A stretch of DNA of 64,000 nucleotides, from the IMG/VR virus record IMGVR_UViG_3300045988_153208; one strand, 5' to 3'. This stretch comes from a virus. The notes under the pieces are model-generated. The model saw only the letters and a list, made by a program, of their open reading frames with translations, did not search any database and was not told where the DNA came from. Of the stretch, positions 22,531 through 61,600 are shown one piece after another; position 1 is the stretch's first letter; each line of letters begins with the position of its first letter. The position numbers and the translations under genes were made by a program.

Positions 22531-25500
22531 TTAAAATACTTTAATCCATACACGCCCATTAACTTTAACTTTTCCAGTTCCCCATTCTTCATAATCAGGA
22601 ACAGCTGAAATAGTACCAATCGCGCAATAACCTTTATTTCTATATTCTTCATCAGTCATAATAGAAACTGTTCCATTAGGACCAGAACATACTGGACGCC
22701 CAATATTCTTTTTAAATTCTTCACGAGATTCATATGGATAAGCAAGAACACGTCCACTTACTGCTATTGGAGTTTTTGCCTATTCAGTTTCACCAATAGC
22801 AAAACCAAATGTATCAGATGTAATATTTGCACCGGGCATCATACGTTCAGTTGAAGTAATAAGAGTATCATTACCAACTTCAATTACGCATCTACCTGAT
22901 TCAACAGTATCGCCTTCACGGAATTCAGCATAGTCATTCCATACAGCACCCCAAAGTTTATTTCCTCGTAAAACTCCAGTTCGAGTATTAATAGTCATTG
23001 TCATGCCAGCATTAGTTGAAGGACATCCATCAACAAAACCAATACTCTACCAAGATTTAAAAATTAAATTGGCTTTTCCAGTAGTCCCTAAAATACTACC
23101 ATCTGCATCTCCATTTCCAACATACATTCCATTATTTCCACCAACTAATCCATGACAAATCATTGCTCCAGTATTAGTAGCAGTTGATGTAGTGGCGGGC
23201 AAAGAACAATTAATACTTCCATTCATAGTTCCGCCAGATAATTTTAAATAATTAGTATCAATCTATAAACCATTTATATCTCCCAAAGTTTTACTAGCAC
23301 TATCAGCATTACCATGAAAATAAACATTAGTACCATCACTTTGAACTATCCACTATGTTTTAATACAATCCCATAATCCATATAACTATGCGCCACCATT
23401 ATCGCGAGATAATTCGATATAACCAGTTGAGCCATTATTTACTCGGAACCCCTATCCAGCCTTATCAACAGCCAATTGACCAGTCATTGTATCTCCGGTT
23501 TTTTTGACATAATTAGAATCATGATTGTGTGAACTTGCTGCTGCTCCAATATTAGCTGGAGTTATATTAATATTTTTAGTAGCACTACCATTATAAGTAA
23601 ATTGGTTTGTTCCTTCAGTAGTTCCACTGTTTAGTTTAATGACTAAATTATTATTAACTTTATCGGCACTACTAGCTTTAGTAGCCGTTGTTGCAGTGGT
23701 CGCATTACCGTTTAAATTACCATGAAATCCATCAGGCTTAATGGAAGCAACTAATTTTCCATCAGCCGCAGTTCCTTTAGTATTTTCATAGAAATTCCAA
23801 ATTCCACCATATTCATGAAAATCAACTTGATTATGTCCACTATATCCAAAATCAATAGCATGATAATATGTATCAGCATTGCCTTCACCACGGAATTTTC
23901 TACTTTGAAAATAATGAGTTTTATCAGTGCCCGTGGCAATATAAGGAGCAGTAAATAATCCAGTATTATCAATAGTAACTTTTGGATTATCTTTAATGAC
24001 TTTACCTGTTGCATCAGCGAATGTGGAAACAGCATTTACAGTAGAAGCATTAGGTCCTGTTACCGCATTTGTGCCTGCATCATCACGCCAACCAGGATTA
24101 CCTTTTTCATCAGTTTTCCAAACTTTATTTTTTTGATTAGCTCCAGAAGCCACATAGCCTTCAGATGATGATGTATTAGCTTTCCAAGTATTTGTATTAG
24201 TGGAGCTAATTGTGATATTACCGCTATCATCACTTACTACTGATGTTGCTCCAGTGCCTTTAATAGTAACGCTATTTCTAACTGTAGTATTATCTACTAT
24301 AGTTAATTTAGTATTACCATTAGTAGTAGCAGCATTTTGAGCAGTACCAGTGCCAGCATATAAGTGAGTTGTATAATGTGTATCTGTAAATTTAGCATCT
24401 GAGGGCACTGATTTACCAATAGTAAATCCAGAGTCTTTAATTATTTTACCATTAGCCCCATTGAATATAGCAACGTGATTATTAACCGCGCTAACCGGTC
24501 CAATTACTGCTCCATCAATATTAGTTTGAACAATAGTCCAATCTCCTGCGCTATGAGTAGTTCCATCTTTAATACAAATAATTAAATCGCCAATTTCACA
24601 AACTTCACCATTGCCAAGGTATTTACCATTATTACCACCTTTAATATCATAAACGCGATAAGTTTCACCCGCGTTATGTTTGGCTGGTAATTCATGAATA
24701 GTAGCAGCTGCATCTCCACCGATAGTACCTTTAAATACCATAGCATCATTAGTGGCTAATAAATTATTTAATTTCTTATCAATATCTGATTTTATATAAA
24801 AATTATTTAATGACCAATCATGTACTGCGTCACCCCGTGCAGCAGCATATTGGTATAAATTGTTTCCATAATTTTCCCCGGCTTCACCAGCTTGTAAAAT
24901 TACATGTCGACTAGCTTTATAAGAATTATCACCATCATAGTTAATATATAAATTATCTTTTTCACAAGCCCCGTCATCTGTTGGTTCTGATATACCACAA
25001 ATACCACGAGTCACTAAACCCGCATTTTGAGCAGTTCCACTAAATACTGCCCCCTACTATAATGTAAGTTGATTAGAAATTATAGTATTTATTTTATTAG
25101 TACCAAGGATATTAGCAGCATCGCCTTTAAAAATATGAGTACCACCTATTACAACATTTCCTTCAAATGATGCGCTACCATTCATATTTAAAAGAATATT
25201 ATTGTTTATATTAATACCCCAATTATTTACTAATGATTCTTCACCAGTATTTATAATTTTAATACCAGTGCCAGCTCCTTTATTATCAATAATTAAAGCC
25301 GAGCCTTCATCATTATTTTCAATTAAAACTTCATCTTTACTTCCTGTTTCAACATTAGGAATTACTAATGTCCCATCTTTATAACCAATACTACCATATT
25401 TTAATTCAATTAAATTTTTAGTATTGTCAGCTACTTTGAATGCTAAAATAGGATAAGTTTCTGTATCTTCAATTTTAGTAGCCTTAATCCAATCAGTGCT

Positions 25501-25683
25501 TAAAGCACTAAGAGGAATACGATTATCTCCAATTACAGCTGGAGATGCATTAGTACCATCACCATCAATATCAATGTAAAATTTACCATCATCTGATGTA
25601 AAATATGCAAAACCTTCTTTTGCATATGGTACATTTGTCATTAAATTTTTTGACAAACCTTTACTTATTTTAAATAATGCCAT
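22531..25683 (-). CDS. Long tail fibre / receptor-binding protein (about 1050 aa)
   Basis: RBS AAGGGAG precedes ATG 25681-83. A single frame was checked codon by codon from 25683 down to TAA 22531-33, with at least 9 in-frame TAGs (25057, 23452, 23386, 23353, 23263, 23047, 22780 and others). It merges track ORFs 25057-25683, 23452-25014 and 22780-23004. The sequence is Gly/Thr/Asn-rich and beta-rich. Its N-terminal anchor module and C-terminal domain are shared with other genes in this module. Confidence 0.7.
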
Positions 25684-25820
25684 TAATTTGTAAACTCCCT
25701 TCTCTGAAAAAAAGTTTATAAAAATATTTCTATTAATTTGTAAAAATTTGAATTATATTATTATTTTAATTAGGCCATTTATTTATAATATTAAAATTTA
25801 AATTTTTACAAATTAATAGA
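25682..25820. repeat. Three copies (two direct, one inverted) of a 14-17-nt motif TATTAATTTGTAAA in the divergent region between the tail fibre gene and the + strand gene
   Basis: cattaatttgtaaa at 25681-95, ctattaatttgtaaaaa at 25730-46, and the reverse complement tttttacaaattaatag at 25803-19. Confidence 0.55.
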
Positions 25821-25843
25821 AAACGAGTGAAAGGAGATTAATT

Positions 25844-26614
25844 ATGGCAGAAAAAAAAGTTGTAGATTTAAATAATTTAAAAACTTTTTATATTAAATTA
25901 AAAGATATTTTTGTTCCTAAATTAGAAGGAAAAAATTATCTCACTAGTTCTACTGGAGATGAAGGGTATACTAAAGATGAAATAGATATTAAAATAAGTA
26001 ATATATCACCATCTGGGCCATCTGATAATATTAATCTTAATTGGCAAAATTAGTTTGAAGATGTTGTTTATAATTCTACATCAGCAGATTTTGATAATTA
26101 TACCTATTATTATTTAGATAATGGGATATATAAAATTGTTACTTATGATTAGATTATGACTTGGGTAAACACTCCAAAAGATACGACATAGCCAGCTTCT
26201 GTTGATAATAATATTTTAGAAGATCAAAAATTTTATTTTAATAAAATTTTAAGCCATACTACTCCAGCTTATGGTATTGGAAATACTATTAGTACTTATC
26301 TTACTGGAGCTGGGGCTCAACAAGTTACTAATATCGCGCAAAAGACTCATTATACTTCATATAATCGTGTAAATAATCAAATTGTTAATAAATCATATCC
26401 AGCATATTTTTCTTATTATAAAAAAGACACAACAGGAAATTTTATTAAAATAACTTAGACGGAAGCTAAAACATTAGGTAATACTAATAAAATAGAGATT
26501 TTTGTAAAAAATTTAACTCCAGAAAATATTGAAAACTTAATTAAATCATCTGATATTCAAACAATTATTGACAACCGAATTAAAACATTAGTTAAATCAG
26601 ATTCATTAAAATAA
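25844..26614 (+). CDS. Hypothetical protein encoded on the opposite strand inside the tail-fibre module (256 aa)
   Basis: RBS AAAGGAG precedes ATG 25844. The frame is open through four TAGs to TAA 26612-14. It is flanked downstream by a bidirectional terminator. Confidence 0.5.
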
Positions 26615-26616
26615 AA

Positions 26617-26656
26617 TAAAAAGGCAGATAACATAATTTGTTATCTGCCTTTTTTT
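26617..26656. terminator. Bidirectional terminator
   Basis: Perfect 12-bp stem aggcagataaca/tgttatctgcct flanked by A5 and T6 runs. Confidence 0.7.
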
Positions 26657-27524
26657 ATTTTATTTTAATCCAAATTCGATTATTGATTTGAATTTTATCA
26701 GTACCCCATTCTTTATACTCAGGAATTTCACTTACATAACCAATTATAGCATCAGGCCATTCTTTGATTTCTTCACGAGTCATTAATGATATAGTTCCAT
26801 TAGGTCCTGAGCAAACCGCCGCGCCAGCAGTAAATTTATATCTATCTTCATAAGGATAAGCTAATACTCGTCCACATACCGCAATAGGTGTTTGTGCTTT
26901 ATTAGTTTCACCAATAGAAAAACCAAATGTATCTGAAATAATATTGCTACCCAGCTGTAAACGCTAAGTTGATAATTCTAAGTCTCCATACCCAGTTTCA
27001 ACTACACACCGGCCAGGCTCTTTAATTAACGATTCACGATATTCAGCATAATCATTAAATACAGCACCACGAACTTTTTTAGCTACTAAAACTCCATTAT
27101 CACCGTTTTTTGTTTTACTACCATCGCCTAATACTAAATTCTATGATCGATCAAATCCTTTAATTAATACGCTCTATTTCAAAATATTATTTTCTTTAAT
27201 ATTAAACATACCTGGAGTTAAATTATCATTTTGAGTTAAATTAGTTTCGGGGGAAAAACTTAATTCACCGGTAATAATATACTGCTTATTTAATACATCA
27301 TCATCAGTCGGATCTTCAATAATTAAGTAGGTTTTATTACCATCTGGAACAATTTTTACACTTCTTACATTCTAGATTTGTAATCGCGTACCATCTTTAT
27401 TCGGACGAAGACGAATGCCAGTTTTTTTACCTGCAACTGGATAAGCTTTTATATTAGCAAGCATTTTATTTAATGCTTCATTTTGTAAAATTATTGTAGA
27501 CTCATAAGGTGAATTACTACTCAT
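26655..27524 (-). CDS. Tail spike/fibre protein whose C-terminal domain is paralogous to the C-terminus of the long tail fibre (289 aa)
   Basis: ATG at 27522-24. The frame is open through four TAGs to TAA 26655-57. The C-terminus [77 protein letters not shown] matches fibre residues encoded at 22531-23000. Confidence 0.6.
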
Positions 27525-27612
27525 TTTTCGTGTTCTCCTTTCTCTCATAATTTTATATCTATTTATTATAGAAAATTATAATAAATCATTATTTATATTT
27601 ACCCAAAAAAAT

Positions 27613-27643
27613 AAAGGGAAGACTAATTTAAAGTCTTCCCTTT
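27613..27643. terminator. Terminator hairpin
   Basis: Stem aaagggaagact/agtcttcccttt with flanking A and T runs. Confidence 0.6.
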
Positions 27644-27655
27644 ATTTTTATTTTA

Positions 27656-28264
27656 TTAAAAATTATCAATCCACTCTAAAGCAAATGTACCTTTCTAATG
27701 TGCTTGTTCTAAATCATGAATTGCCTAAATAAATGCTTTATCAAAAACAAATTCTTCCTGAGAAATATTATCTAAATCCCAATTTTGACCTTGCTCTACA
27801 ATTGCTTCAGCAACTAATGTATTTAATTCATACATTAAATGTCCTGCAGCATTAAGACTAAAGAATTTAATAGCAAATTTTACAGTACCAGCATATTTAG
27901 TGGCCGCATTCTGAATCACCCATGGCATAATAATTTTTTGATTTACATTATCAGTAGTAATATCCATATAAGGCACTACATAATAATAGGCTTCACCTTT
28001 TGCATTTTGAAATTGAATAATGCAACAAGTGTTAGATAAATCCATGCCATCAAAATATCGATCAAATGTAAAGTATAAAGTCTCAGCCGAATGGTCCTGA
28101 GAGACGATAATGAAGGACTTAGGCACTTTTATTTTACGTTCATTTAAATCGATAGGGATTAACTCTTCTTTAGGTGGAGTTGGAAGGAGAATGGCTTTGG
28201 AAGTTCGCATCTGTTTGTCGATAGACCAAAGCTTATTCTCATAATCTTGATAATTAGTAATCAT
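27656..28264 (-). CDS. Tail or baseplate accessory protein, a paralogue of the N-terminal domain of the downstream Ig-domain protein (202 aa)
   Basis: RBS AGGAGAAAGGAG precedes the start. The track ORF 27725-28264 continues through three TAGs to TAA 27656-58. It shares IKVPKSFI...QDHSAETLYFTFDRYFDGMDLSNT with the gene at 28294-30228. Confidence 0.55.
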
Positions 28265-28293
28265 GATTATTCATTCTCCTTTCTCCTAATTTA

Positions 28294-30228
28294 TTACTTA
28301 ATATTAATATAGAATGCATCACTATTTAGTGAATAGGCACTTCCATTATATTTATTAGTTACACGAATAAAATAATTACCTTCTTGATTACCAACCATTG
28401 AAGAGGTAATTGTAGTATGTTTCCCACCTTCAATATCAGAAGAATTTAGTTCACAAACAAAAATGGGATTAGTGTCATCACTTTCTTCACCAGGTAATTG
28501 GTATAGACTACAAATTACTTTATCACTATATACTTTTTCATTAATAGCGGTTAAAACATATTTAACATCAAATGATTTTTGAGTGTACTTATCTGTAACT
28601 CCATCAGTAGATGCGTTTAGGTTAATCCAATATTGTCCACCTTGTTTACTTAAACCTAAAACAATACTATTCTCTTCAATTTTAGAAGCTAAAGGAGAAA
28701 CGATATATTCTTTAGATTTAGTTTCGTCTAAAGTAGTTTGATTATTTAAAAATGTTTTAACTCCAACAATATATTTACCTTCTTCGCTAACAACAAAACT
28801 ATTATTTTCAGTAGAACGAATCCACTTTGAAGTATTAACAGGAGTTGTATTCCCATCTTTATACCAAGCATATTGAACTAAAGCCTTAGGTTCAACTCCT
28901 ACAGCAGGAGCTTCATAAGCATCTGTATTATCATATCCAGAAGCAGTAGCAGTTAGAGTAACTTCATTGCCAGTTAAAAATGCCACAGAATCAGCTACAG
29001 ATAAATCAATATCATAACCTTCATCTTTTAAATCACTATTATTAGAAGTAATTGTAATTTCAGCAGGAGCATCGGGTTCAGGGCAAATTACCACTGGAGT
29101 ATGCTCAAGAACACCTTGACCAATTTTCTTATTTTCTTTATCAAAAATAATTCCTTGAGCCTGAATATAATATTCACCGACACCACTTACTTCAATAGTG
29201 GCATAACGAGCATATAATTCACTCTTGTTTGGAATAGCAATCTCTAGATCATTCCAAGTTCTAACGTCTTCACTAGAAGCAACCTTATAAACGCTGCCCT
29301 CTTTTATATAATAAGTGCCAGTAGGGTCTAAAGGAATACGTTTATCATTTTCATCTTTTTTAGAAACTAAAACATATTCATCTACTGGGTCATCTTCTCC
29401 AGCAGGAGTAGAATACTTAATGTCCGCCGCACCTGCTTGTGCGCGAGCATATAATTTTACAGGTACAGAAGATAATGTTTGAGAGTCGCCATTATCTACC
29501 GCATTACCAGCTAAATTTATAGTCTATAAAGCTACTGTAGCGTCGGGGTCAGTGACCAAGCCATTGGTAAGCCATTTTAAATCATCAACTTTAGCTTCGC
29601 CTTCACCAAAACTGCTGTTTTGAAGCATATTTAGAATATCATCATTAACATTAATAACTGTAGGATTAATTAAAACTAATCCTTCTTTAATATTAATTGT
29701 TGAGATTAAAGTATTTAAACTATAGCTAATAACATTATCACGTTCAGCATAAAATTCAACTGCAAAACTTAAAGTACCACTTTTACCAGTTAAATCTTTT
29801 GCCACAGGCCAACCAAAAATAATTTTTCCAGGTTCAGCATCAACGCTCTTAGAGAAATTAACAGATTGACCAGAAACATCACCAATTTTCCAATTGATAC
29901 GAATATTACAATTGTTTAAATCCATATAATCAAAATATCTATCAATACTAAAGAAAACAGTTTCAGCTAAATGATCTCCTTGAACTGATAAACCATTAGC
30001 AGTAAAATCAGAAGGAATTGTAATTTTGCGGCTATTAGCATCAATTTCAAACAAAGGCTCATCCAAAGGAAGTCTTAAAAACTTTTTATCTAACTCACCA
30101 ATTTCTTGTATATATCCGAAAAAGCTCTCAAGGTTATCAATTTGAATTTTACCATTACTAGCTTTGTCAATATCTTCATACAGTTTTTGATAAGCTAATT
30201 TAACAGAGTCTTTATACTTTGTAATCAT
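28294..30228 (-). CDS. Tail protein with an N-terminal paralogous domain and C-terminal Ig-like (BIG2-like) repeats (644 aa)
   Basis: RBS GAAAGGAAGG precedes the start. Track ORFs 29524-30228 and 28294-29094 are in one frame, joined through TAG 29524-26. The gap was checked and has no TAA or TGA. The gene ends at TAA 28294-96. It has the motif ITIPSDF...GDHLAETVFFSIDRYFDYMDLNN. Confidence 0.6.
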
Positions 30229-30266
30229 AGACTAGAAAACCTTCCTTTCTAAAATAATTTTCCCTT

Positions 30267-30299
30267 ATAGAGAGAAGAGAATTAATCTCTTCTCTCTAT
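30267..30299. terminator. Terminator hairpin
   Basis: Stem agagagaagaga/tctcttctctct with loop attaa. Confidence 0.55.
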
Positions 30300-30340
30300 T
30301 TTTCAAAAAAGTTATATATTAGATAATTGGAACTACCCAA

Positions 30341-30556
30341 TTAAACTTCTTTCCACTAATCTAATTCGTCTTCTGGAATAACTACATTTTGAACAAAGTC
30401 TTTTCCATTTTTAGTAAGACGTTTATTATTATCAGCAAGTAATTGAAGTTTTCTAACATAATATATATCTTCAAGATGAATGGGAGAAAGAATCGTTCCA
30501 TTAGTACCTAAATACTCATACATTACAATTTTAGTCATTTTCTTTTCTCCTTTCAT
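30341..30556 (-). CDS. Small protein (71 aa) translationally coupled to the giant tail protein
   Basis: Its ATG overlaps the TGA of the upstream giant gene (ATGA). The frame continues through TAG 30356 to TAA 30341-43. Confidence 0.45.
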
Positions 30557-33500
30557 GAATTAATATAATTAATTTTATTAAATCCTGAGAATAGTGAATT
30601 AGCAGCGTCTTGTTTCAAAGTAGTATACCAATCAACTGATTCTATAGTAATTGCAGACCAAGAGGCATAGTTAATAAAGGCTGGATCGCCAGATACGATA
30701 CGCAATTTAGATTTTTCTTCTGGTGTACCAATAATAATCTTTTTAATACCTAATGTTCTATCACTATTTAAATCACTATAGCTAGAGAAAGTAAAACCAC
30801 CATTATCAATCTTCTAAACATTAGAACCAATAGTTAAGGTATCATTATCTCCAGAGAATGTATTTTGGAATGCGCTTTGATTGATTACTGCAATTGTACC
30901 ACCAATACTTACATTAGAGAATTTTGGATATACTACACGAGATTGACAACCAGGCATTTTAAATGCATAGTCTCCAATCAATCTTAATCCTTCAGGGAAT
31001 TCTACCCACACTAAGTTCATTGAATGAGAGAAAGCGGCACCACAGAAAAATCTAATATTACATTTTTCAACATCATTTTCTTTATATTTTTCAAAGAATA
31101 CATGAGTTAAATTTTCACCATAGCAAACTGGAACATAAGTAACAGAATTTAAAGTAGAAGATTTTCCTGGGAATCCTGGATTACGAGGACTGTCAATATC
31201 TGTATCATAAATATCTCCAGGTGAACCGAATGTCGCATCAATAGCAATAACTTTTTTAGATACTCCATCTACATTAAAGAATGCTGGCACTGTAATCTTT
31301 CCTTTAACTTTTTTAGTCAAAGCTAAAGTCACGCCATCTGTAATATTCCACTTTGTCTCTCCTGCCCAGTCAGTATAGTAAGTATCTGCGGGAGTGAGAC
31401 CAGAGGTCTATTCAGAAACTGCAAAATACTCTGGATGAATATCTTCATATACATTAATAGGATTATTATCAAATACTGCATAAAATGTAGTATCCTCAGT
31501 AATCATATATTCTTCTAATTTCATAGCAGAGGAAGCAGTTGCAGAACGACTATATCCTAAGAATTTATAAGTTTGTTCTAGTGGTAAATCACTATCATCT
31601 TTCCAAGGAATAATCGTAGACATTACAGCGTAATTACCATGAGGAATTTTCTTTTCTTCAATTAATGTATTATCTTTATAATAATATTTAACACTCCATT
31701 TATGAATAGGACAAATTGCATAGAATATATAAGTATGGATACTAGAATCAAGAGTTTGTTCGCTCCACTTATTAATACTTTTATCAATATTAATAAGAAT
31801 ATCAGCACTAGCAGAATTAGTTAGTGCCCAACCATAGAAATCATGATTTGGTTTCTTCTCACTAACATCGCCAAATGCATCAATAGGATCTGCAAACCAA
31901 GTTTCGCCCTCTTTTAAAGTCATAGAACCAATTAATTGATAACGACCATCATTACCTTCATCTTCATCCATAATTACAAATCTAGCAGTATATCCCTGTT
32001 CAACATTCGCACAGAAGATTGTTAAATCAGGATAAGCAGCTTGGATAGTATTACGTAATTCAGATTCTTTAATAACTTCTGTATTATTAATATAAATAAT
32101 ACCAGAAATATCAGGAATATTTTTACTAGAATTTTTAATCCATTTCTTATCACTAATAAATTCTTTAAACATAGCTAAATCAGTAATTTGATTTATTTTA
32201 TCTTCTGGGATTGTTTCATCCTTACGATAAATTTCACCATTTTCAACTTTAATAGTCCATGCATCAAAATTAGTATAAGTGTAAGGTTCTAGTCCATAAT
32301 GTCCATTATCTATATAATAAGTAATAGATGGATTACGTTCATCATCAACAGTCATCTAAACATATGGACACCAATTCACATTGGTCATAGAAATTTGAGA
32401 AGTATTAGTCTATTGACTACGGATAGTATAATATTGTTTTAACAATTTATAACTATCATAGCCTAAGCCACCACCAGCAATATTTAGAGAAGCAATTACT
32501 GTATCACCCTTATCTCCAGTTGAGGTTTTATCAAAGAAACCTTGGAGGTATAAACCAGGATTAGCATGTAAATTACCTTCATCATCACGGGTAGGATTCT
32601 AATATTCATCTTCAGTAATTATATTCTTTAACAAATTAGCTTCAATTAATTCAAGATTTGTAATACTAGTAGGTAAATATACAGTATTTAATGCGACGCC
32701 TTTAGCAAACTAAACGTTAATTAAATTAGAACCAGTAGCACGGAAATCCTCTAATTTTTCACAACTAGTTAAATCTAATATAGGAGAAGCAGCATTAAAC
32801 TGAATATTACTCATATTTACTTCTTTTAATAAAGGCATACCTTTACTATCAGAAGAACTGGCAGGAATACTGAATTGGTTAACATTATCATTATGCCAAC
32901 GCTCTCCATTTGTATCTAAACCATCATATCCTAATTTCAAACTAGTTAATTTAGTAGCATCACCAGAAATTTCAAACTCTTGCCAATATAGATTACTCAT
33001 ATCGCCAAGGTCTTTCATTTGATTAATACCATAAACATATAGTAATTGTTCAGGATAATTTTCACTCTTACGGACACCATTTTCAATAGAGTCAATATTA
33101 AATCTTAATGCATGAACACCATCATATTTACGAGAAGGATAGGCTTCATTATCATCACCAAGAGTAACATAAGAAGAATGGGCTGGAGTTAATGTCATCC
33201 AATATTCAGCATCAAATAAATGATTTTTAGTCAAAGTGCTTTCATCCTTGAAATAAGGATCGCTAGCAGTTTCAATCCATTTATCTGAAGTCTTATTTTT
33301 ATTATTCGCAGCAACACGACCACGGATGCGGTTCGCACCACCACGTTGATAGTTACCTTCATTTAACCAAGAGTCAATATACTCTAAACGATTAGATAAG
33401 AATTGTTGACGAGATAGGCTTCTATTTCCTTGTAAAGCATAGAAATAAGTACCATTAGTATCAACAGTATATACACCAGTTGTATCACTGCTAATATGTC

Positions 33501-36500
33501 CAGTAGTACCATCTAAGTAAGAAGCATCATTTGTAATAGTGATATATTTATAATATTCATCTAAGTTAACTGCTACCAATGGACGAGTACCCAAGTCAGC
33601 TAAGTTATTTGTTGTATTATAATCAGTTAAATAATATGATTCAATACGATCAACAGTTTTTAAAGGTGGCTGTTTTAAATTAGAACCAAATACACTAGTA
33701 GTAATACCGCGTAAATGTCTGTATTTAGGAATAATTAAACCAGTTTTAAAGTATTTATAGAAGTTATTCCATAAAACACTATCAGAAGTAGAATAGTTAC
33801 CATCTTCAGTAGCATCAACATTGTATTCAAATGAAGGAATACCAGTATTATTAATACCTAATTGAGTATCAATATCATAGAAAATTGGATACCAAATATA
33901 GTCTCCGCCTTTCTTTTGAGGACCCCAAGAAGCCATCATACAGTTTTTACCACGAGAGTCATAACATTCAAAAATTTCTGTCATAACGAAATATGTAGCC
34001 ATATATTCTTTATCGAAGTGGTCACTTAATTCATAAGTAAATTTATCACCACGATACTCTTGTGTGTCATATTTATAAGAGCGATCACCATAAATAATAG
34101 TGGTTCCAATATAATATTTATTTGGCTCATAAGTTTCAGCAGTCACAGTAGCTTTAGTTACTGCTTTACCACATTTAGCGTTTCCATCATAATTATAATA
34201 TGTTTTACTTGCATCAAATGCTTCATCTTTACATAAAACAACTAATCTATCAGCCTTTGTATCTAACTCTTCATCGCTATAAGATTCCAAAGTATAATAA
34301 CGTTTATCGGGATTAAATGTATCAGTGCTATAACAAGGAACATAGGTAATATTATTATTTTTATCAATTTCACCAGTATATAATTTAGTTTTAATAGCAC
34401 TAAATAATACTGTTCCAACATAAGCAACGATATATTCATGACTATTTTCTTGATTAGGATTATAGTCAGGATTCTTTTTATAATAAGTAGTGCCTTCTAT
34501 ATATTCTTTAGCTAAGGTATAAATCTGTTCAGAAGTTGATGGATTAGTTGTCATAATATAATGTTTATTACTATCAAATAATTCTTCACCAACATCACAG
34601 ATTTTATAAGTACCATTTGATACAACTTTTTCAGTACAAGTACTCCAAACCCAAGCTACAGCGCGTTCCCAATTAGAATAATCTTTCAATAAATGCTGAG
34701 CGCGATTTTCTTGATTTAATGTAATATCATCCTTAGAAAATGTTAATGTTGGGTCTTTCTTACATTCTCCATCAGGAGCCATAATATAATCAAGAATATC
34801 TTCGTCATTATGATAACGATATTCAAATGAGTCTGCTACCACAGGGGCAGATTGAACTGCATTTAATACACGAGAACCATCAGCATTAAATACATCAAAT
34901 TTCAAATCTTTGCGGTCTTGTGGGTCACGATATGAGCAGAAGGTACGGCTATTGTTTTCAAACTCCCAACATTCTGCTACTTTAGGCATACTCTTAGTAC
35001 CATCGCCTATAAATTTAGCTTTTGGATCTTTACCAGTAGTGCTGTCAAGTGCGAATCCATATACTTCATCAGAACCTTTATCTAAAAGCATATTGTATAT
35101 ACCAATAAATTGATAAATAGGCTCTGTGCTACCATCGACTGGTTTCTTTTTATGGAATGCAAGTACACGGAACCCTCGTACAGAAGTACGATAATCATCA
35201 GTATTTTCAACCTTAAAATCGCTGTATCCAGGTTTCATAATATACCATTTATTATATTTAGGATTACTTGAATCAGCTACTTTTAATTTTGAATAAACAG
35301 TTGGATTTTCAGCCATTAATTTTTGATATAATGCGTATGGACCTAAATCAAAATCTTCTTTGCTGGTAATCACAATATTATCTTCTAAGACTTCATTACT
35401 TGCTGTTTTCGGATTACCCTTATGATTATAATAAGTATAAGTAGTTCCAGGAACATACTCAGTTGTTTCAGTCTCAACAGTTTTGTCAGGGTCTAAAACC
35501 TAAAATGCTTTTGCATTATTATAATCGTCTAATGGATGTTTAGAATAAGCATTTTTAACCATATTTGCAAATCCCATATTATAAGTTCCAGAAGATTCCA
35601 TGTAGTCAATCTTCATAGTAAATTTATGAGTTCCGCAAGTATAATTATTAAAATACCAATATTTTTGACGAGTTTTTTCATTGCCACGTTTTACGTAAGC
35701 AGTATTTTCAATATAAAAAGTATTAGGTTTATAAGGATTAGTTTCGCTAAATGTAACTTCCTTTTCACCATTTTCATCTTCATAATATTTAATTTTTAAT
35801 TGGCCAGTAGCAGAATCAACTAGAGGACCTAATGTTGTACTTAAAATATAAGGCTTCTAAGTAGAACCTAATACATCAGCATTATACTATTCTCTGAATG
35901 GCCCACGGTTTAAGAAAATGTTAACACGCTTTTCGCCATCTACCGCATCGTTATTTTTAGTTTTAACTTTATAATTTCTACGAGGATAGAATTCAGATGA
36001 AGTTCCTTGAACGCTCATTGATGCGCTATCACTAATAAATGAAGGACAATGATATTTATAATAAGTTTCAACAGCTTTTTGTTTTTCAGCTGCTGTCGCA
36101 CCATCACCAAATAATTTATCAGCTTTAGCTAATTCTTCCAATTTACCTTTATTATAATACATTTCAAGTGGAGTATTAACAAATTCAACTCCAACATTTA
36201 ATTTAACCTTTTTAGAATAAGGAAGTTTATTTTCACTATCTTCTAATTTAGTAGTATCAAAAATAATATAAGGCATTAATGGGGCATCAGGATGTTCATT
36301 ATTATACTTTATCATATTAGTATAGCTAAATTGGAATTCATCAATAGCAGTATTTTCTTCTGCTAATTTATTTTGATCGTAAATATTTACATTCTCAAAA
36401 TCAGCAGCATAATTCATGACAATATCATTAACGTTTAAATCAGTGCGATATACTCGGACCTTATATAAATCAATATCACAGTAATCACTGTTAAATTCAA

Positions 36501-38715
36501 TTTTATCATTTTCTACAACAAATCCATTTTCTTGAGTGTTTCTAACAACACTAGTTAGTACACCATTTAAATAAATATAAATTAAATTTTGAATTTTTTC
36601 TTTACTATATTTACATACAACAGATAAAGTAATAATTTTATTTTCTACATAAGATACGTTTACGGTATCAGTACCATTAGAGAAAAACGCATCCTGTGGT
36701 CCTAAACATAAACCAGTAACGGCTTTAGTATTACCAGAAGAGTAACTACCTATAACATTACTTAAATTAATTTGCTTAGCAATATGACTAAATTCTAAAT
36801 CATCATATTCCATTCTACGTTTATTACCATTTTTATCGACAAATTCAACTTCATAAGTTTTTAAATACCAAGCTAAAAATGCATCATAGTTGGTGTATGT
36901 AGTATTAAATTTGCCAGTTTCTTCATCATAAAATGCTTTATATAATTTTTCATCATTTTTATAACGAGTAATAGTACGAATTAAATTTGAATAATCCTAA
37001 ACATTACGAATTTTGAAAGTTAATTCAATACTATGAGACTGCTCAGTAGCTTGAGAGCCACTAGGATTTGAAAATACAGTGCGACCAATAGGAATAGATA
37101 ATTTAGCACCATTACTAATACGTAAACAAGTTTTATTATCTTCATCCGTAGTCCAACCATTATTATACCAATTAAAATTAGTAAAAGTCGCCGCACAAGG
37201 TTCAGCCCCTAGAGCTGTAGAAGAATTTACTAAAGTAGTGCGTTTAGCCAACGTTTCAGAATTAGAACGTCCACTACCTACTGTGTTTAATAAATAAGTT
37301 AAGAAGCCTTGCTTCTAAATACCAAAGTCTGTTCTTGTTGGGTCATTTACAACACGAATTTCAATTTTACGGGTAGTCTCACGCGCTCCATCACCACAAG
37401 TAATAGTGTAGTGATTAATTACATTTAATTCAGGATTAGCAATTTCAAAAATAGCAAATTTCTTAGAATCTGTAATTGTTTGAGGAGAATAAGAAAGTTC
37501 AATATTATTACGTTTAAAATGCACTACTGGGTTTTCAGCCTATGGGTCAAAAACACGGAAAGGAATTTGAATAGTGTCATAATTATAATATTCATCTTTA
37601 TAGTCTCCCAACCAAATAATTGGAGGAGCTTGAGGGTCTAAACCATCATAAACAGCTACTTCAAAAATTAAAGGGTCAACTTCAATTCCTTTTTTGCCAT
37701 TAATTGATTGGAATAAACGAATCCAAACTTTATGATAACCATTAACTACAGGGATATATTGTGAAACATTAACAGTCTATAATGTAGCCGAATTAGCGGC
37801 TAAAGATACACTTAAAAATGGTTCATCTTCATTGTCAAAATAATATTCAACAATTTTATCCATAGCGCCATTAACATTACATTGTAATACTAATTTACTA
37901 GGCTCGAAATAACTTAAATTAGAAAAACTACTTGATTCTTGTAATTCTAACTTAGAAGTTTTAAATGTTACTAAACGAGTAACTGTGCTTGGATGATTGG
38001 TTTGACTAGCCACTAATACTAATCTTGAAGAAGCATCGTCTTTAGCCAATTTACCAAATTCAAAAGCATATTTTTCGCCATCAGGCACTTGGAATGTTCC
38101 TGAATTATATTGGTTGTAATTGGTGCCATCATCAGTATATTCTAACTTCCAATTAATTGTTAGAATAGAGTCATAAGAATTACCCTTTTTATTTTTAGCT
38201 GATGTGGCGACAAATGTTATTTCTTGAGAACGTCCATTAATTAAGTTAACAGTAGGTAATGAGTCTACAGTTAATTCAATATCAGAAGCTAATGAGCTAG
38301 GGTCATCTCCTCCCCCTCCACCAGCAACAGTTAAACGACGACATAGCACATTTTGAAATGCTCGCTGAACTTTTATTACACGATAAAAACAATTATCACC
38401 TAAATTGATAATTAAATCATCTTCTTCGGGATACTCTCCGCCTTCAATAGCTCCGATTGGAATATTGATTTCATCTTCTAGTTTTTCAGCATCAGTCGGA
38501 GTATAATTGGCATAATAAATACCAGAATTACTTCCTGAGCCACCACCACTACCGCTTCCTAAAAGCTTTCGTGATACCATTGTACCATCAGCTTGAGTAT
38601 AGTCTATGAAAATTTTACCAGTATCAACTGCAAAATAAACATATCCATCATTAAAACCCATTAAATCTAATTTAGCTTCAGTACCACGAACAGGGATGAA
38701 TCGTTTATTGCTCAT
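30553..38715 (-). CDS. Giant multidomain tail fibre or baseplate protein (about 2720 aa)
   Basis: RBS AAAGGAG precedes ATG 38713-15. Track ORFs 37777-38715, 37315-37524, 36997-37251, 35887-36813, 32710-35373, 31408-32355 and 30814-31332 are all in one frame. Every gap was scanned and contains only TAG, no TAA or TGA. The first true stop is TGA 30553-55. The N-terminus carries the shared fibre anchor module and Gly/Ser linkers. Confidence 0.65.
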
Positions 38716-38764
38716 GCAAGTATCTCCTTTCTATCTTAAATTTTATATAAAACAAAATTATATA

Positions 38765-38800
38765 TAAAAAAAATGGGAGAGGAATTTTCCTCTCCCAAAT
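38765..38800. terminator. Terminator hairpin
   Basis: Stem gggagagg/cctctccc flanked by A8 and T runs. Confidence 0.6.
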
Positions 38801-38856
38801 TCCTTCGTTGATTTTTAAAAAAACCACGAATATAATTATTATAGATTGTCCTTAAA

Positions 38857-40500
38857 TTAGAAAGAACCCCAAACCAAATCAGCAGTAACAGTACTACCAG
38901 ATGCAGTTAGTTTTAAAGTATCAGATTTTAATACCATCTTTGCATTTTTATCAGATACTAAACTAGTTCCAGCTTGTAAAGTATGTGCTACAGTAACAGT
39001 GTTAGTAGCATCATCACGAGTAGCACTATCTGGACCGGGCTTATATTCTAAAGTCTGGATAGTTTTAGTATTAATACCAGTGATATGACCATTATCATAA
39101 GTGACAGAATCGATAACATCGAAAGTACCACCATTAGTTAATGATTTGCCATCAGTAGTTGATGTAGTATCATAAGTATCATGCTTGATAGTTACAGATA
39201 ATTGATTTGGTGCTGAACCACCATTATCAGTAGAATCAATAACAATGCCATCACCTTCGGTAAAAGCAATTTTACCAACTACTCCACCACCATTACTAGA
39301 AGTAATGGTCATGCTATCGGTTGCACCTGCAGCTTTAAAAATATAAGTAGTATCAATCTATGCATCATCGCCAGAAGGAACATAAGTCCATTCGACATCA
39401 CCAATAGCTAAAACACCATTGGTTTCAGATTTTTTATCTTTGGCAGTCGCAATTAATAAATCGCCAATACCAGCAGTTTTACCAGTAGCATAAGTTAAAT
39501 TGCCACCTTGAACTAAGAACATGTCGCCAATATGAATCTCAGCAGCAGTTCCACCCTTTAATACATTGAAACTTGCATCCATAGTAAAGGTAGTGCCACT
39601 AGTGCCAATAGTGCCACGATAAGTCATACCGTCAAGTTTATTAATTAACGCATCGACTTGGTCTTTAGAGTAAACAGGAAGGTCTACTTGTTTAGTATCG
39701 CTACCAATACCATAATAACTACCATCAACGAAATAACCTAACTTTTGTGTCTTTAAAAGACCAGTAGTTCCAGCAGTATCAGAAGCTCCTACTTGTAATT
39801 CACCATCATTGTTTAGACCTAAAATAATACCATTTAATTTAGTATCTTTAGATGCAATTTGAATACCATTACTTTTATCAATTTTAGTAACAGTTACATT
39901 GTCGCCGCCTTTGATGTGGACAGTGCTATCATCCTATAATGCGCTACCTAATACTAAATCAATATCATTAGTAGTATTAGCATCCTCTTGAACATTAAGA
40001 GTATAGGTATCACCAGTAATTGTGAGTGCTTTATTATTAGCCATGGCTACTTGAGCACCCTTAGCTCCAGTAATAGTTACATCAGCTGCGGTAATAGTTT
40101 TACCAGCATCACTATTAGTACCACCAGTAGTAATCTTAACACCCTTGTCAACTGAAGAAACAACTTGAGTTAGAGCAGTTAAAATAGTATCGTCATCAGG
40201 ATTGATTTGCGCCCAAGTAGTACCATTATAATATGCTAAAACATTTTCAGTTACACAATAAGCGATATCGCCTTTAGTAGATACCGTTGGTTTTGCCTTT
40301 AATTTACTTAAATTATCATAAATTTCAACACTTTTATTTAAAAGAGCCAGTTCATCAGCTTGACCAATATATAAACGACTACTATCAGAAGTTAAATAAA
40401 ATGTACCTACTTCCCAGCCCTTTTGAGAATCTTTTAATGTATTTAAACTCGCTTGAGTACCAAGTTTAAATTTTACAGCATTACCAGTATAATCAGCCAT
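38857..40500 (-). CDS. Tail fibre protein (547 aa) with the shared N-terminal anchor module
   Basis: RBS AAAAGGAG precedes the start. Track ORFs 39934-40500, 39358-39627 and 38857-39312 are in one frame joined by TAGs, ending at TAA 38857-59. Thr/Gly/Asp-rich beta-rich repeats are present. Confidence 0.6.
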
Positions 40501-40527
40501 AATAAAATCTCCTTTTTATTTTAAAAA

Positions 40528-41466
40528 TTACTCTGAGAGTTCACCCCAAATAATACTCTCATAAACTTTATTAATTTCGTTGACAATATTAGTAGTATCT
40601 CCAGCCACATAAGCTTTACCGAGGTCATTTAATGAGCCAACAGTAGAATTAAATACCTCAAGCGAAGTATATTCTTCAACAAGTTTCTTTTCAACAGCTT
40701 GTAACTGAGAAACTTTTGCATATCCAGTTAAATCAGCATTACCAAATGTACCTAATTTTTCTGGTTTTGAGTTAATAAGCATATATTCATCATAAGAATT
40801 GTTATCATCTCCACTACTATTAGGCACTAAGTAAACAACATTTTCTTTATTATTTTCCGCTGAAGTAATATCTTCTAAGCTGCCAACAGGTTTATAGGTT
40901 AAATGATTCGCATTAGCGATTTCATTTTTAATAACAGTATTAAAATTATCAACTTGATTTTGTAGATTAACAATTTTAGTACTAATAGTATGAAAATCTT
41001 CTTCGGACTTTTCCCACTCTAACTTACCAGCAGCTCCTTTTTTCAAATAAGAGCCACTTTCTGCAGTATCAAATCCAATGAGATTTAATTCAGGATTTGA
41101 CCCTTCAACAGTTTTAAATTCAAATGTATTAGCATTAACATTAATCTCTAATTGACTAGCTATTAAACTAGCAACATCAGCTAATGATTTACTTTCCCAT
41201 TTACCACTGTCATTTTTAACTAAAAACGCACCAGCATCAGTTACAGTTTCTAAAACATCACTAATATCAGATAACTTAGTAATATTAGTCCCCGAGCCAG
41301 AGCCACTAATTAATTTATCACCTAAATATAAATATCCATTTTTCTTATCCGCAGATTCATAGATAAAATATAAAGTATTAGGATCTATTAGTTTTCGCGC
41401 CTTTAATGAATTATAAGCAGTTATTGTACCGCGCTAAAACTTTACATAATTAACATTATTTGGCAT
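40528..41466 (-). CDS. Tail fibre or accessory protein (312 aa) with the shared N-terminal anchor module
   Basis: RBS GAAAGGAG precedes ATG 41464-66. The frame continues through TAG into track ORF 40528-41046 and ends at TAA 40528-30. Confidence 0.55.
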
Positions 41467-45562: not shown

Positions 45563-48373
45563 TTATAGCAATCTTGGAGGGGCTTTTGTAGCCACTACAG
45601 TCATCATACCATTATGATTTAACTAAATGGTAATTTTATTTAAAATATATTCTCCATGTATATCACTTTTATTATCATCAACTGTAATAATTGTATTTGG
45701 TTCTAAATAATAAACAGGGACAGATTTTAAATTTATTTTTTCATTCAAATAAGCATATTGATATAATAAATTATTCAATTCATCATATGTTGTTTTACCC
45801 TAAGATGAAATAACAAATTTATCTTCATACATTTTAGGTAATGGTATATAAGCATATCCATCCTATAATAAATTTTGTTTCTAATATAAGCTATATTTTT
45901 CAGGACTAATATAAATTATATTAGGAGTATCCCTATAAATAATAGATTTAATAGCATCATTATTAACAATTTTCGGCCTATCTCCAATAGCTTTCACAGA
46001 GTACTTGCCTATCGTACATTCTGAATCTTCTATAAAATCCATCCAAAATTCTAATGTAGAAGGGTCAGTAATATATTTTCTATTCCATCCATAATACTCT
46101 TTTTCATTATCTGGTAATGGCATCTACTCCTCAGGTTTTTGTGGATTCGGCATGCCAACAAAATAATTTTTATAATCAGTTGTTGTAGGATTATATATTT
46201 TTCTCCAATATGCTAATAAATCAGCATAATAACTTTCATAACCAGTACATCCATTTTTAAATTCTGGATTATTTTGAGTTAATTTTACTGCATAATCATC
46301 ATTATGTCCATATTTCTCATAATCTAATGCCATTTGATAAATTAATTCACGCCAATTCTATTTTACATAATACTATGTATTTTTATCTTGGTCTGGCATT
46401 ACTGGCTAATACACATAAGCCTTGCCGCCTTTTTGATACAAAGGATCAAACCAACTTGCCCAGGGATGCGTACACATAGAACCATGTCCAGTATATCCTA
46501 TACTACCATCTGACAATAAATCAAAAACATATAATTTTTTATTTTCCCAATCATTCCACTAACCATAACTTGAACTGCAGGAAGTGCCATAAAATTTTTT
46601 CATTAACTCATCATTATGGCATTCACCATAAAGAGAAGCAATATCTATATTTACTCCTCCATTTTTCCCATCATAATAGTCTCCCAGCTCTCTATCAGGA
46701 TACTATCCTAAATATAACTTATAAAGTTCAGCCCAGTCTTTAACATCCCACCATTGTTCATCAAGAGCAGTTCCCTATAAAGTATCTTTTGGATTAGGAG
46801 TTTTTACAAATTCTCCAGTTTTTAATGGATCATAAGAACGATAAACTCTTCCATCAATTGTAGTATATTTTTTAGGTTTTTCATCAATAGCATATCGTAA
46901 ATGAATGGGTACGCCTTCACTATTCGCAGTAGTTGGATTCTTTTTGCCCCAAATCATAAAATTATTTTTTATTTTAGAAAAATCAGGAGTATGCTAAAAT
47001 GAAGAAATTAAAACATTATCTGAAAAATTATAAGAACTTTTTGAAGCTAACATTGCAACTTCTGCATAAATCTAATTATAAGTATACTAATTATCATGCT
47101 TTTCATAAATAGAATTTAATTTTTCATCTTCTTCAGGATTAACTGAATCTGTAGTTTTTATCATACTAGTCCAAGACTAATTTACATAAGTCCGCTTTTT
47201 CTAAAAAACAAATTGTCCATCAAGATTATAAAAATATTCATAATCTCCAAAAGTAGAACAAATTTTATCAAGCACTGAAGTGATTGTATCTCCTACATTA
47301 ACTACCAAACCATCTTCATCAGGCCAATATAAATCTACTGCTCGATATCCAGCCGTACCAGTACCACTAATTTTAGAAACATAATATCCTATTTTATCAT
47401 TAGGACTATCTTTTACTTTAGTTTTAAAAGTATTTGAACCAATTTCAGTTAATTCACTATCTGTCAATTGATTTAATTGGACTTTTTTCCCAGTAGTAGT
47501 ATATTTTGTTAAAGTTGTATCAAAAGTAATATTGACATAAATACCATTATCATCTAAAAAAGCATAAAAATCACCATCAGTATATCGTAATAATTCTAAA
47601 CCTTTATCATCAACATCTTTAATTAAAATATTATGAAAAGGCTCATTTCCATAAAAATGGATCATTTCACGAATAATATATGTGATAGGACGTCTTATTT
47701 TTTTATATTTTTTAATTTCTCCACTAATACTATCTTTAACTTCAACAATACCCAACATTAATTCATTATTTTGCTATTCGGTTAAATATGCTATACCTTC
47801 ATCAGTTAAATATTGAGTTTCAGTATTTTTATCAATTCTCCAATGCAAATTTTTTATTAAATTATATTTTACAATTAATTCAGATACATTTAAATTTTCT
47901 TCATCATATTCAACTAATTCTATTGCAAAATCAATTGGATTAGGAAAATTTCCTCCAATATCACCATTTAATAAACACATTTTATCTTTCCCTGAAATAG
48001 CAATTTTACATCCAGTAGAAGTAAGTGTTGTATTAAAAGCAGTAATTAAAAACATACCTTGCGGGAACCAAATTAAATCATCATAATCAGAATCAATATT
48101 ATTAATTAGGCCAATATAAAGATTAAATTTAGTTGTTAATCCCCAATATACATCAGTAATATTTACTCCTTCAGATACTAATTGTACTGAACAAGAACGA
48201 CGAACAGCGGAGGACCCATCAATATTGATGGATCCTCCAGAAGCTTTGCCTTCAATCGATTCAACAGGTTCTTCATCTTTATTTAAACTTACAATTTTAA
48301 TAAAAACTTCTTTCTAGTTGTCTAAATCTAACTATTTCAAAAAATGAGTATCTAACAAAGGATTATTTTTCAT
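45563..48373 (-). CDS. Tail protein (about 936 aa) with a Cys/His-containing putative hydrolase-like region
   Basis: Its ATG overlaps the TGA of the upstream giant gene (ATGA). Track ORFs 47774-48055, 47201-47758, 46775-46957, 46124-46333 and 45881-46123 are in one frame. The gap 46334-46774 was checked and contains TAG only. The gene ends at TAA 45563-65. It carries the motif GHGSMCTHPWASWFD. Confidence 0.5.
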
Positions 48374-58677: not shown

Positions 58678-61600
58678 TTAAACAGTCTTTCGACTTGCAT
58701 ATTGACTTGCTTCATTCTCCATCATTTCAAATGCTTCCATAATTTCATTACTATCAGTCACATTCGGGAAATCAGCATTAATAGAAACTTGCTGCATAAA
58801 TTCTTGTGCAATTCTATCAACCCCAAGAGAAGAAGGAATAAGATTAGATAAATAACTCACAATAGTCTAAACATTTAGCCCTATATTTTGTAATATAGTA
58901 GAAATATCTAAACTATCCATTAAAGCAGTATCAATGTTTAATTCATTATTACTCATCCAATCTTCAATTTGTTTATTCATATCTAATTGATCTAACATAT
59001 CTAAATAAGAGAATTGAGAAATATAATCTGGCACTTCAACTGTTTTATTAAAACTCTCAGAATTGTGCTAAGTACTAATTATATTATTTGCTGTTGCAGT
59101 TGAACGAGAATCAATGGCATTTTCATATTTACCATAATCAATACTATTCATTCCAGATAAAGCCGCCATCATTTCATTCATAGTTTTTACTAAAGCTTCA
59201 TTCCGCTTAATCGCACTATCAATTTTAAAAACATAAATAGATTCCCAATCACTCGCTGCTTTAATAACACCATTAAATGATTCTGTGGCATTTTTAACAA
59301 TTTTTTCCATATCTGCTACAGCTTTATCTGATTCACCAGTAATTTTAATCGACCATCCAGAAGCTGCATCAGCAAAACTTCCTTCAATACCTGCTGTACT
59401 ATTAATTTCTTTAATTTTATTTAAATAATCATCAAGTAATTTATTAGAATCAGCAACATAATTATCATGGCTTTTCCAAAATGCGTTAAACATTTCATCT
59501 AATGTAGAATATCCTGTTTTTAATGCCAAAGTAGTCTGATCAAAACTATCAACTAATGCGCCAGAACTATCTTTATAATATGCTACAAATTTTTCATTAG
59601 CATCTTTACTATTTTTAAATACTTCTTCATATTGCTAATGAATCTATTGCATACGTTCATCATAATATTTTTCTAAATCAGCAGCCTATTTCTCGTATTC
59701 AGCTTGAGAAATTTCTCCTTGAGTAAATGATAGCTTTATCGCTGTTAACTTTTCTTGATAGTCAGATTGTAATTGAAGAATATTATTTTCTAATGTTTTT
59801 AAATATTCTTCATTAGCTTTTTGATAAGCATTTAATTTATCTTCATATTCTTGTTCAGCTTCAGCTATTTTATCTTCATTAGCACTATATACATATCCCC
59901 AATTACCATTATTATCACGGGTTAAACGAACAGTTTCATTAGAATTTTGAACATCTTCCAATTTCTATCTTGCTAACTCTAATTCATATTTAGATTGTAA
60001 AATCTTTAAATCATATTCACTAATTTTAGAACCATCTTTTAATTTTTTATTTAACTCATCTTGTAATTTATTTAATGCTTGTTTATGAGGAATAATATTA
60101 GTATCATCAATAGAACCTTCAATCTGACGTCTTAATTTATTTAATTCATAAGTTTTATCAGCATCACTTAAATACTAATCATTTAATTCATTGGCCCTAG
60201 TAATAGCATCTTGCAAAGCTTCAATAGAACCATAAATTGGAGATATACCGTCTTCAAATTCTTTGACAATATTATCCATTTCTTCTTCAAAGATATCGCG
60301 TGCTCTTTCTAAAGCTTCTTGCCAAGTATCTAAGAAATTTTCTTCAGCACTATGGACTTGCTCATCGATTTCTTTTAAACTATCACTCCATTGTTTAATC
60401 CCAATTGAATCTCCATTGGCAACAGCTTTATCATATTGCTCTTGAGCATTAGCACGCATTTGTTTTAATGTCTCTACTTGCTATTTAGCTCCGGCAAGAT
60501 TATTAATACTATTGTTCATTAATGAACGATTTAAATTACGCAATACTAGTTTTGATTGCTCATTTAATTGAGCCCCTAATAATGAAGTAATATCTTTAAC
60601 ACCTTCAAGAATATTTTGATAATGTTCAAATAAATCAATTTGGTCTTGAACATCCTCACTAAATTGATTAAAACTATCAAGGACTTTTTCTTGAATGGTC
60701 GCTCTCATTTCAAGTAATTCTTGATTAGCTTCTAAAATACTAGAACGCCATTCTCGAATTTGATCAATTTCATCTTCAGTGAAATTCTTAGCTTTTAAAT
60801 CATCAACTGTTAATTTGTCAAGCTCTTCAATAGAATTAATACCATGATTATTCAATAATTCCAGCAAACCATCAGAATAAGTTTTAGTTTTTTCTAAGGC
60901 ATTTTCTGCTTTTTCACCAATTAAAGCAATAGCCTCAGCCGCAGAATAAGCATCATCTTCAATTTTACTTAATAAATAATCAAGATATTCCAATTCATCA
61001 TCTTTAACAGCAATTTTAATTTCAATTTTATACTAAGTCTTTTCAAAAATTACATCAGCTAATTCAGTTTGTAAATCATATAATTTTTCCAATTCATCTT
61101 GGCGCAGATTATTAGTTTCTTCATACTATTCTAAAGCTTCAATAAAATCATCATAAGCTTCTTCAGCTGCATTATCAGCATCTTCATTTTTACCAATAGA
61201 TGAATTGTATTTATCAATCTGGCGCTTCATAATTTCATCATAATTAGTAATAACACCAGTTTCATCAAATTCAGCACCATAAGATGCAATTAAAGCTTTA
61301 TCTTCATCCCAATATTTATTAATTTCATCAAGATATTGATTCTATAAATCAATCATTTCATCATATTTCTCAATTTCTTGATCCATTAATTCTAATTTAG
61401 AAGTACCAAATGCTCGCTCTTTAGCTTTTGCTAAATGCTCCATTACTTCTTCTAAATCTTCAATTTTTTGCTTAATTACATGATAACGCTCAATTTCATC
61501 TTTATATTCTTTTGGAGGAGGAGGAGTATATGAACTTCCACCACCACCATTTCCACCTCCGCCATTATTGTTAGTGGCAGTGGGATTAGTAGTTAAATCA

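Follow-up and report, generated by a model that had tools for sequence, protein, structure and literature searches.

The 64,000-nucleotide stretch of viral DNA analysed here (IMG/VR record IMGVR_UViG_3300045988_153208; hereafter the window) carries on its minus strand a set of genes that we explain as the tail-fibre block of a large (about 100–200 kb) uncultivated phage reading TAG as a sense codon, in which four fibre proteins would have an N-terminal docking domain and two proteins a self-removing C-terminal chaperone; the probability that we give to this explanation as a whole is roughly 0.65. Four fibre-like proteins—a long fibre of 1050 amino acids (aa), a giant protein of 2720 aa, and two proteins of 547 and 312 aa—each start with a diverged copy of a domain of about 50–60 aa, which would nucleate the trimer at the virion-proximal end and dock the fibre onto the tail or baseplate. 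A second domain, of about 134 aa, forms the C-terminus of the long fibre and of a short protein; by analogy with gp12 of phage phi29 it would align and fold the trimer and then cut itself off at an invariant N/D-Y-A-E motif (the slash marks the predicted cut), leaving mature ends at N916 and N165. Host-range variation would sit between these constant ends, with blocks of the long fibre exchanged or the gene split, and with distal parts diverging fastest. The gene map was made with TAG translated as glutamine. The coordinates, lengths, strand and peptides given for these genes in an earlier description drawn from the letters alone (the sequence-only reading) all proved correct once TAG was translated as sense.

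The long fibre gene (22531..25683, minus strand; eight in-frame TAG codons) encodes a constant N-terminal region (aa 1–145), a mosaic shaft and the C-terminal domain. The short protein is encoded at 26655..27548 (minus strand) and has 297 aa counted from the first ATG or 289 aa counted from M9 (nucleotide, nt, 27524); M9 agrees with the starts of the orthologues and is the likely true start, and it is the start that had been chosen before. The proposal that the C-termini of these two proteins are paralogous is borne out: aa 903–1049 of the long fibre and aa 152–296 of the short protein are 57% identical over 147 aa (BLAST, E = 2e-52), and the similarity begins at aa 903 of the long fibre (nt 22977). 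The predicted auto-chaperone occupies aa 917–1050 plus the stop codon in the long fibre (22531..22935, minus strand), with self-cleavage predicted at N916/D917, and aa 166–297, in the 297-aa numbering, in the short protein (26655..27053, minus strand), with cleavage predicted at N165/D166. The part of the short protein outside the chaperone, its predicted mature form, is about 157–165 aa long. Both window proteins carry the domain at their C-terminus, and the same position is seen in all related loci.

On profiles and structural models, the shared C-terminal domain is a diverged intramolecular chaperone of the phi29 gp12 type (Pfam PF11962, Peptidase_G2; MEROPS G2). It has 749 homologues in a collection of 5.8 billion proteins, none of them named and none labelled by Pfam for the domain; most are cut short, since gene callers end them at TAG. 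Thirty of the 160 columns of the family are invariant, N-D-x-A-E-x-R among them. A Pfam scan of family members returned a weak Peptidase_G2 match in two of 48 (best E = 5e-4), and the window proteins themselves gave no match to PF11962 at E ≤ 1. A homologue sharing 94% identity with the window sequence was modelled with AlphaFold2; the model has a predicted local distance difference test score (pLDDT) of 90, its top Foldseek match in the PDB is 3SUC, the pre-mature phi29 gp12, and it has the fold of the gp12 C-terminal fragment. When the family profile was compared with all PDB sequences, gp12 was the sole match (E = 0.06), and in the profile alignment W-N/D-Y-A-E sits on gp12 W690-S691/D692-F-A-E695, with the D, A and E invariant. 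The motif N/D[YF]AE is present in 116 of 120 homologues, always 123–147 aa from the C-terminus. Mature phi29 gp12 ends at residue 691 (PMC6542822), and the gp12 C-terminal domain is cleaved after folding and needed for trimerisation (PMC3357383). It is on the Peptidase_G2 matches, the modelled fold, the profile alignment and the position of the motif that we base the assignment; by the same analogy, removal of the chaperone after folding is most likely. An intramolecular chaperone had been one of the options raised for this C-terminus, and the 3SUC fold match and the gp12 motif alignment support it. Peptidase S74 was also considered and is rejected, as neither Pfam scanning nor fold searching brought up an S74 match; the gp12-type chaperone is of the beta-stranded, non-S74 kind (PMC4690869).

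Two results count against self-removal by a gp12-type domain. Scans of window proteins with Pfam, NCBIfam and PHROG gave nothing useful, with no protein reaching a Pfam threshold, and the predicted cut follows an invariant Asn here, the cut in phi29 a Ser, so that the cleavage chemistry may differ. The same substitution would suit a domain retained by the mature proteins, in which it would act as a distal knob of a binding or decoration-like kind, and some auto-chaperones, for example that of the P22 tailspike, are indeed uncleaved (PMC3357383). Such retention is nevertheless improbable, given that the invariant D-x-A-E aligns to the gp12 maturation site, that the domain caps fibres with unrelated shafts, and that it varies less than the distal segment next to it, whereas a receptor-binding tip should vary more; in the short protein and its L007 orthologue the chaperone is 80% identical and the preceding segment 36%. 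Because a gp12-type chaperone is predicted to remove itself, the shared C-terminus would be an assembly device and not a receptor binder. Of the description of the block as a domain-shuffled set of receptor-binding proteins, the shuffling holds for the long fibre, which is a true block mosaic, but not for the shared C-terminus, which appears to be a gp12-type chaperone and not a shuffled receptor-binding domain.

The window domain resembles that of phi29 gp12 (PDB 3GQH and 3SUC) in lying at the extreme C-terminus of what would be a trimeric adhesin and in having a D-x-A-E motif aligned to the S691/D692 maturation site; it differs in being only 18% identical and in the Asn before the cut. The setting differs too: the gp12 chaperone is on the beta-helical appendage of a small podovirus, whereas here the domain caps a long mosaic fibre and a very short protein of a large TAG-recoded phage with a tape-measure gene. 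Peptidase S74 chaperones (K1F endosialidase, T5 pb1, the GA-1 appendage) follow the same logic of a C-terminal, self-removing trimerisation chaperone (PMC4690869), but they have an elongated, helical fold with tentacles and a Ser-Lys dyad, and both fold and motif differ from those of the window domain. The trimerisation domains of collagen XV/XVIII (multiplexin; PDB 9BNB and 3N3F) were also listed among the closest known systems. We regard the fibre block as essentially an ordinary example of modular phage fibres and its C-terminal domain as a diverged new member of the gp12/Peptidase_G2 group; it is a well-established principle that modular fibres keep a conserved proximal end and carry a C-terminal chaperone that removes itself, and the present case extends this principle without changing it. 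The assignment proposes a function for a large unannotated domain family (at least 749 homologues) and should help to annotate the fibre genes of uncultivated gut-type phages that recode TAG, genes which standard callers fragment.

The N-terminal domains are located at aa 1–62 of the long fibre (25498..25683), aa 1–55 of the giant (38551..38715), aa 1–52 of the 547-aa protein (40345..40500) and aa 1–51 of the 312-aa protein (41314..41466), all on the minus strand. Pairwise BLAST among the four is marginal (E about 0.5), and independent families were therefore built from metagenomic homologues: 110 for the long fibre, 66 for the 312-aa protein, about 24 for the 547-aa protein, and three for the giant. 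The long-fibre consensus begins MALFKI-KG...L, that of the 312 family is NYVKF-RGT--AY-AL--KD-DTLYFI...G-LYLGDKLISG, and that of the 547 family is V-FKLGTQA-L...GTFYLTSDS-RLYVGQ. Alignment of the families with hhalign gave two strong pairs, long fibre with giant (95.3%, P = 2.3e-8, score 40.0) and 547 with 312 (95.2%, P = 2.6e-8, score 39.4), and links between these pairs through the 547-aa protein (long fibre–547, 75%, score 26.7; giant–547, 70%, score 26.0); on longer alignments 547–312 reached 93.7% over 83 columns and long fibre–547 66.5%. All of the significant pairs are in register over residues of about 5–50. Reversed and column-shuffled controls never scored above 21 in 360 trials, and the similarity is therefore ordered and not compositional; the sequence-only reading had named low-complexity composition as what would undo its claim, and these controls speak for ordered motifs.

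Searches with hidden Markov models (HMMs) against 514 six-frame segments of the window agree with the alignments. The long-fibre HMM found the giant N-terminus (E = 3.5e-6 to 6e-6) and ranked the 547-aa protein third (E = 0.22); the reverse searches were reciprocal, and with deeper profiles the 547-aa and 312-aa proteins were each other's best non-self match (E = 0.011 and 0.026). A pooled HMM picked out exactly four carriers, the next-best segment having E = 0.54. These results support homology of the four N-termini, but only as a chain in which the 547-aa protein is the bridging member. The earlier claim of a module shared by four genes thus stands as homology by hhalign and HMM, but the 312-aa protein lacks a direct link to the long fibre and the giant. 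This gap is a weakness of the explanation, direct hhalign comparison of long fibre with 312 and of giant with 312 being at noise (scores 13–14.5), and it lends some weight to a reading in which the resemblance is partly convergent, with two unrelated beta-hairpin-rich pairs (long fibre and giant; 547 and 312). The cross-pair hhalign probabilities of only 66–75% and the cross-pair HMM matches of E = 0.2–0.5 point the same way. Convergence is still very unlikely, since cross-pair hhalign scores of 26–32 exceed all 360 controls (maximum 21), the alignments are in register with the same N-terminal offset and the common pattern F-K-x-x-G...L...G-x-x-Y-[FL]-T-x-D-x-x-[KR]-x-Y-I, and the 547-aa protein stands as high as third of 514 segments with the long-fibre HMM.

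Residues 1–150 of the window's own long fibre were modelled with AlphaFold2, which predicts a 62-residue beta-alpha-beta-beta-beta domain (pLDDT 89–96) followed by a low-confidence shaft. The unit of about 60 aa is without a solved counterpart or described function, apart from an overlap of one subfamily with PF24243 (Phage_tail_C, 'Phage tail tip domain'), a model of 26 positions that matches the first half of the 312-type module along x-V-K-F-x-R-G-T-x-x-A-Y-x-x-L-x-x-K-D-x-x-T-L-Y-F-I; the model spans only about 25 residues, whereas the N-terminal domain here has 50–60. Among relatives of the 312-aa N-terminus, 27 of 62 match PF24243 above its cutoff (best E = 8.8e-10; protein P0258 scores 27.9 bits), and the window copy itself scores 16.3 bits (E = 0.0064) against a curated cutoff of 23.7 bits. 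The N-termini of the long fibre, the giant and the 547-aa protein gave no match to PF24243 at E ≤ 10. Fibre N-terminal domains of the Mtd_N/HylP type were also considered, but the N-termini of BPP-1 Mtd and HylP1 showed no sequence or fold match to the unit. Two designed propellers, 'Cake' and 'Scone', were strong-looking PDB matches of the pooled N-terminal profile and were set aside as non-homologous, being sums of generic beta-hairpin repeats of about 10 bits each.

From its position and the polarity of conservation, we infer that the N-terminal unit serves in trimer nucleation and proximal docking. Several observations argue against so specific a role. The PF24243-type motif is internal, between repeat units, in three other fibre proteins (P0345, P0348 and P0356), and it lies at the extreme C-terminal end (residues 364–389) of FibU of phage 80alpha; the motif core DG-x-x-Y-F-x-S-D-G-x-x-Y-I, moreover, is similar to beta-hairpin blades in general, each repeat of designed propellers giving it a score of about 10 bits. 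In the structure of the staphylococcal phage 80alpha protein (FibU, gp68) the C-terminal motif is unresolved (PMC7048315). With the motif internal or C-terminal in other fibre proteins, the anchor reading draws on position and conservation only, attachment through the common adaptor of the sequence-only reading is no more than putative, and the motif may be a general fibre building unit and not a dedicated anchor. Taken to its end, this would make the N-terminal unit a general beta-alpha-beta-beta shaft building block without specific docking, the fibres attaching in some other way. We think this unlikely: in all four fibres of the window the unit occupies residues 1 to about 55, as it does in 58 of 60 representatives of the 312 type; no part of these otherwise diverging fibres is better conserved than the N-terminal region; and a Gly/Ser linker sets the unit off from the shaft in both the giant and the 312-aa protein. 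When the 312-family profile was searched exhaustively, it returned 6883 representative matches, repeat-only matches included, and in every single-stretch match the full 312-type N-terminal region lies at residues 1 to about 120. A bolder version of the docking reading is doubtful; in it, the unit would be a new fibre-initiating trimerisation and docking domain whose four paralogues plug four fibres into equivalent sites on one tail, and the invariant Asn would mark a gp12-type subfamily with Asn-dependent release.

Downstream of its linker, the 312-aa protein contains at aa 60–100 (41167–41289, minus strand) a repeat unit, L-x-D-L-x-D-V...D-G-x-x-L-x-Y-D...K-W-x-N, that giant metagenomic proteins, up to 4722 aa long, carry 7–36 times in tandem and that is without a Pfam model.

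The fibres were compared with those of IMG/VR relatives, and a consistent polarity of conservation is seen. Orthologues of the long fibre in near-identical phages range from 702 to 2176 aa; they keep aa 1–145 and about 903–1050, internal blocks are rearranged, gained or lost, and the flanking genes are 93–100% identical. In one of the relatives the long fibre is divided over three genes, and a LamG lectin-like protein is encoded between them. The giant and its counterpart in a relative share 100% identity at aa 1–55, 61% at aa 2301–2720, and 95–100% elsewhere. Identity of the 312-aa protein is 91–98% in the N-terminal part versus 69–73% in the distal part, and that of the 547-aa protein 56% versus 39–47%. 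These sequence comparisons agree with fibres whose proximal end is constant and whose distal end varies, and with a chaperone that is constant too but disposable. Natural cassette boundaries, for engineering or for the prediction of host-range modules, would be given by the constant ends and by N916 and N165 as the predicted mature C-termini.

One block of the mosaic is common to two of the window fibres. This internal module (long fibre aa 295–430, 24394..24801, minus strand; 547-aa protein aa 276–423, nt 39232–39675) is 26% identical between the two, with a BLASTP E-value of 1e-6 in pairwise comparison and 0.008 in the all-versus-all comparison, and the block recurs at different positions in the long-fibre orthologues. 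Where the long fibre is split, the intervening protein (L004:4298–6202) is a double LamG lectin-like protein. Other variable cargo around the long fibre in relatives, at L005:5078–7553 and L005:10445–12172, includes a radical-SAM-like enzyme adjoining a Cys/Gly-rich 270-aa protein, and a protein of 575 aa in which an ALK/LTK glycine-rich domain is combined with Listeria-Bacteroides repeats. The sole variable part of the giant, aa 2301–2720 (30556–31815, minus strand), contains a weak BspA-type LRR_5 match at aa 2561–2650 (E = 2.7e-5, below the Pfam cutoff); it is plausible that these distal 420 aa are a binding tip.

Phages with several receptor-binding proteins, such as CBA120 with TSP1–4 and those of Klebsiella and Acinetobacter with their tailspikes, carry conserved N-terminal anchors on exchangeable spikes. 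The window resembles them in having several adhesin genes in one tail module, with constant ends, variable central or distal parts, and cassette exchange between close relatives. No Pfam or PHROG match to T4 gp10-like branching domains or to depolymerase beta-helix or tailspike enzyme domains was obtained among the block proteins scanned, the 2424-aa protein not being one of them, and the likeness is therefore a functional analogy only. The comparison with broad-host-range multi-tailspike phages made in the sequence-only reading keeps its value for the several adhesins with conserved proximal ends, but extends neither to a tailspike enzyme nor to a gp10-like domain.

Taking TAG as sense increases the open reading frame (ORF) coverage of the window from 42 kb to 67 kb, with no gain from recoding TGA or TAA; the longest ORFs then reach up to 2730 codons, the standard bacterial code yields a patchwork of short ORFs, and the fibre-block genes are present only under the recoded reading. 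The amino acid is probably glutamine, one TAG column of the 312-aa gene being Gln in standard-code relatives. No tRNA genes, suppressor tRNAs included, were found in the 64-kb window. TAG is rare in the plus-strand replication genes (1–22 kb; 0–5 per gene) and dense in the minus-strand tail genes, with up to 41 TAG codons in the 2424-aa gene.

The minus strand forms a single late operon-like block at 22.5–63.6 kb, in which the genes encode, in order, proteins of 1644, 966, 2424, 936, 113, 1181, 312, 547, 2720, 71, 644, 202, 289/297, 256 (plus strand) and 1050 aa. The 1644-aa protein (58678–63612, minus strand) matches PHROGs 34405 and 339 and is a tape-measure protein, and the 936-aa protein (45563–48373, minus strand) matches PHROG 1887, 'tail protein'; by these matches, the fibre block lies downstream of the genes for the tape measure and the distal tail, where a long-tail module has its distal end. 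No family match was obtained for the 966-aa and 1181-aa proteins. Besides the long fibre, the fibre genes are those of the 312-aa protein (40528..41466), a member of a large coherent family, the 547-aa protein (38857..40500) and the giant (30553..38715), all on the minus strand. A search of INPHARED phage records found no relatives of the region, of the 312-aa protein or of the long-fibre N-terminus, and one weak match to an unannotated faecal phage; judged by this search, no cultured or annotated phage is related.

A further paralogy within the block was not remarked in the sequence-only reading: aa 26–159 of the 202-aa protein (27656–28264, minus strand) and aa 50–183 of the 644-aa protein (28294–30228, minus strand) are 35% identical (E = 1e-18), and the pair is kept in distant relatives as proteins of 206 and 843 aa. 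No gene of the block is better conserved than the 202-aa gene (93–100%). The sole family match of the pair is to PHROG 25888, of unknown function, which makes the two proteins candidates for an adaptor or a component of the baseplate; the 202-aa paralogue has no match among PDB sequences.

Two further genes lie in the block. A 71-aa ORF (30341–30556, minus strand) overlaps the stop codon of the giant by 4 nt, is 58–100% identical in relatives, distant ones included, and is without a family match; its product might be a small assembly factor. The 256-aa gene (25844–26614, plus strand) runs opposite to the two chaperone-bearing genes that flank it and is likewise without a family match; its counterpart in a close relative encodes 419 aa and is similar at the two ends only.

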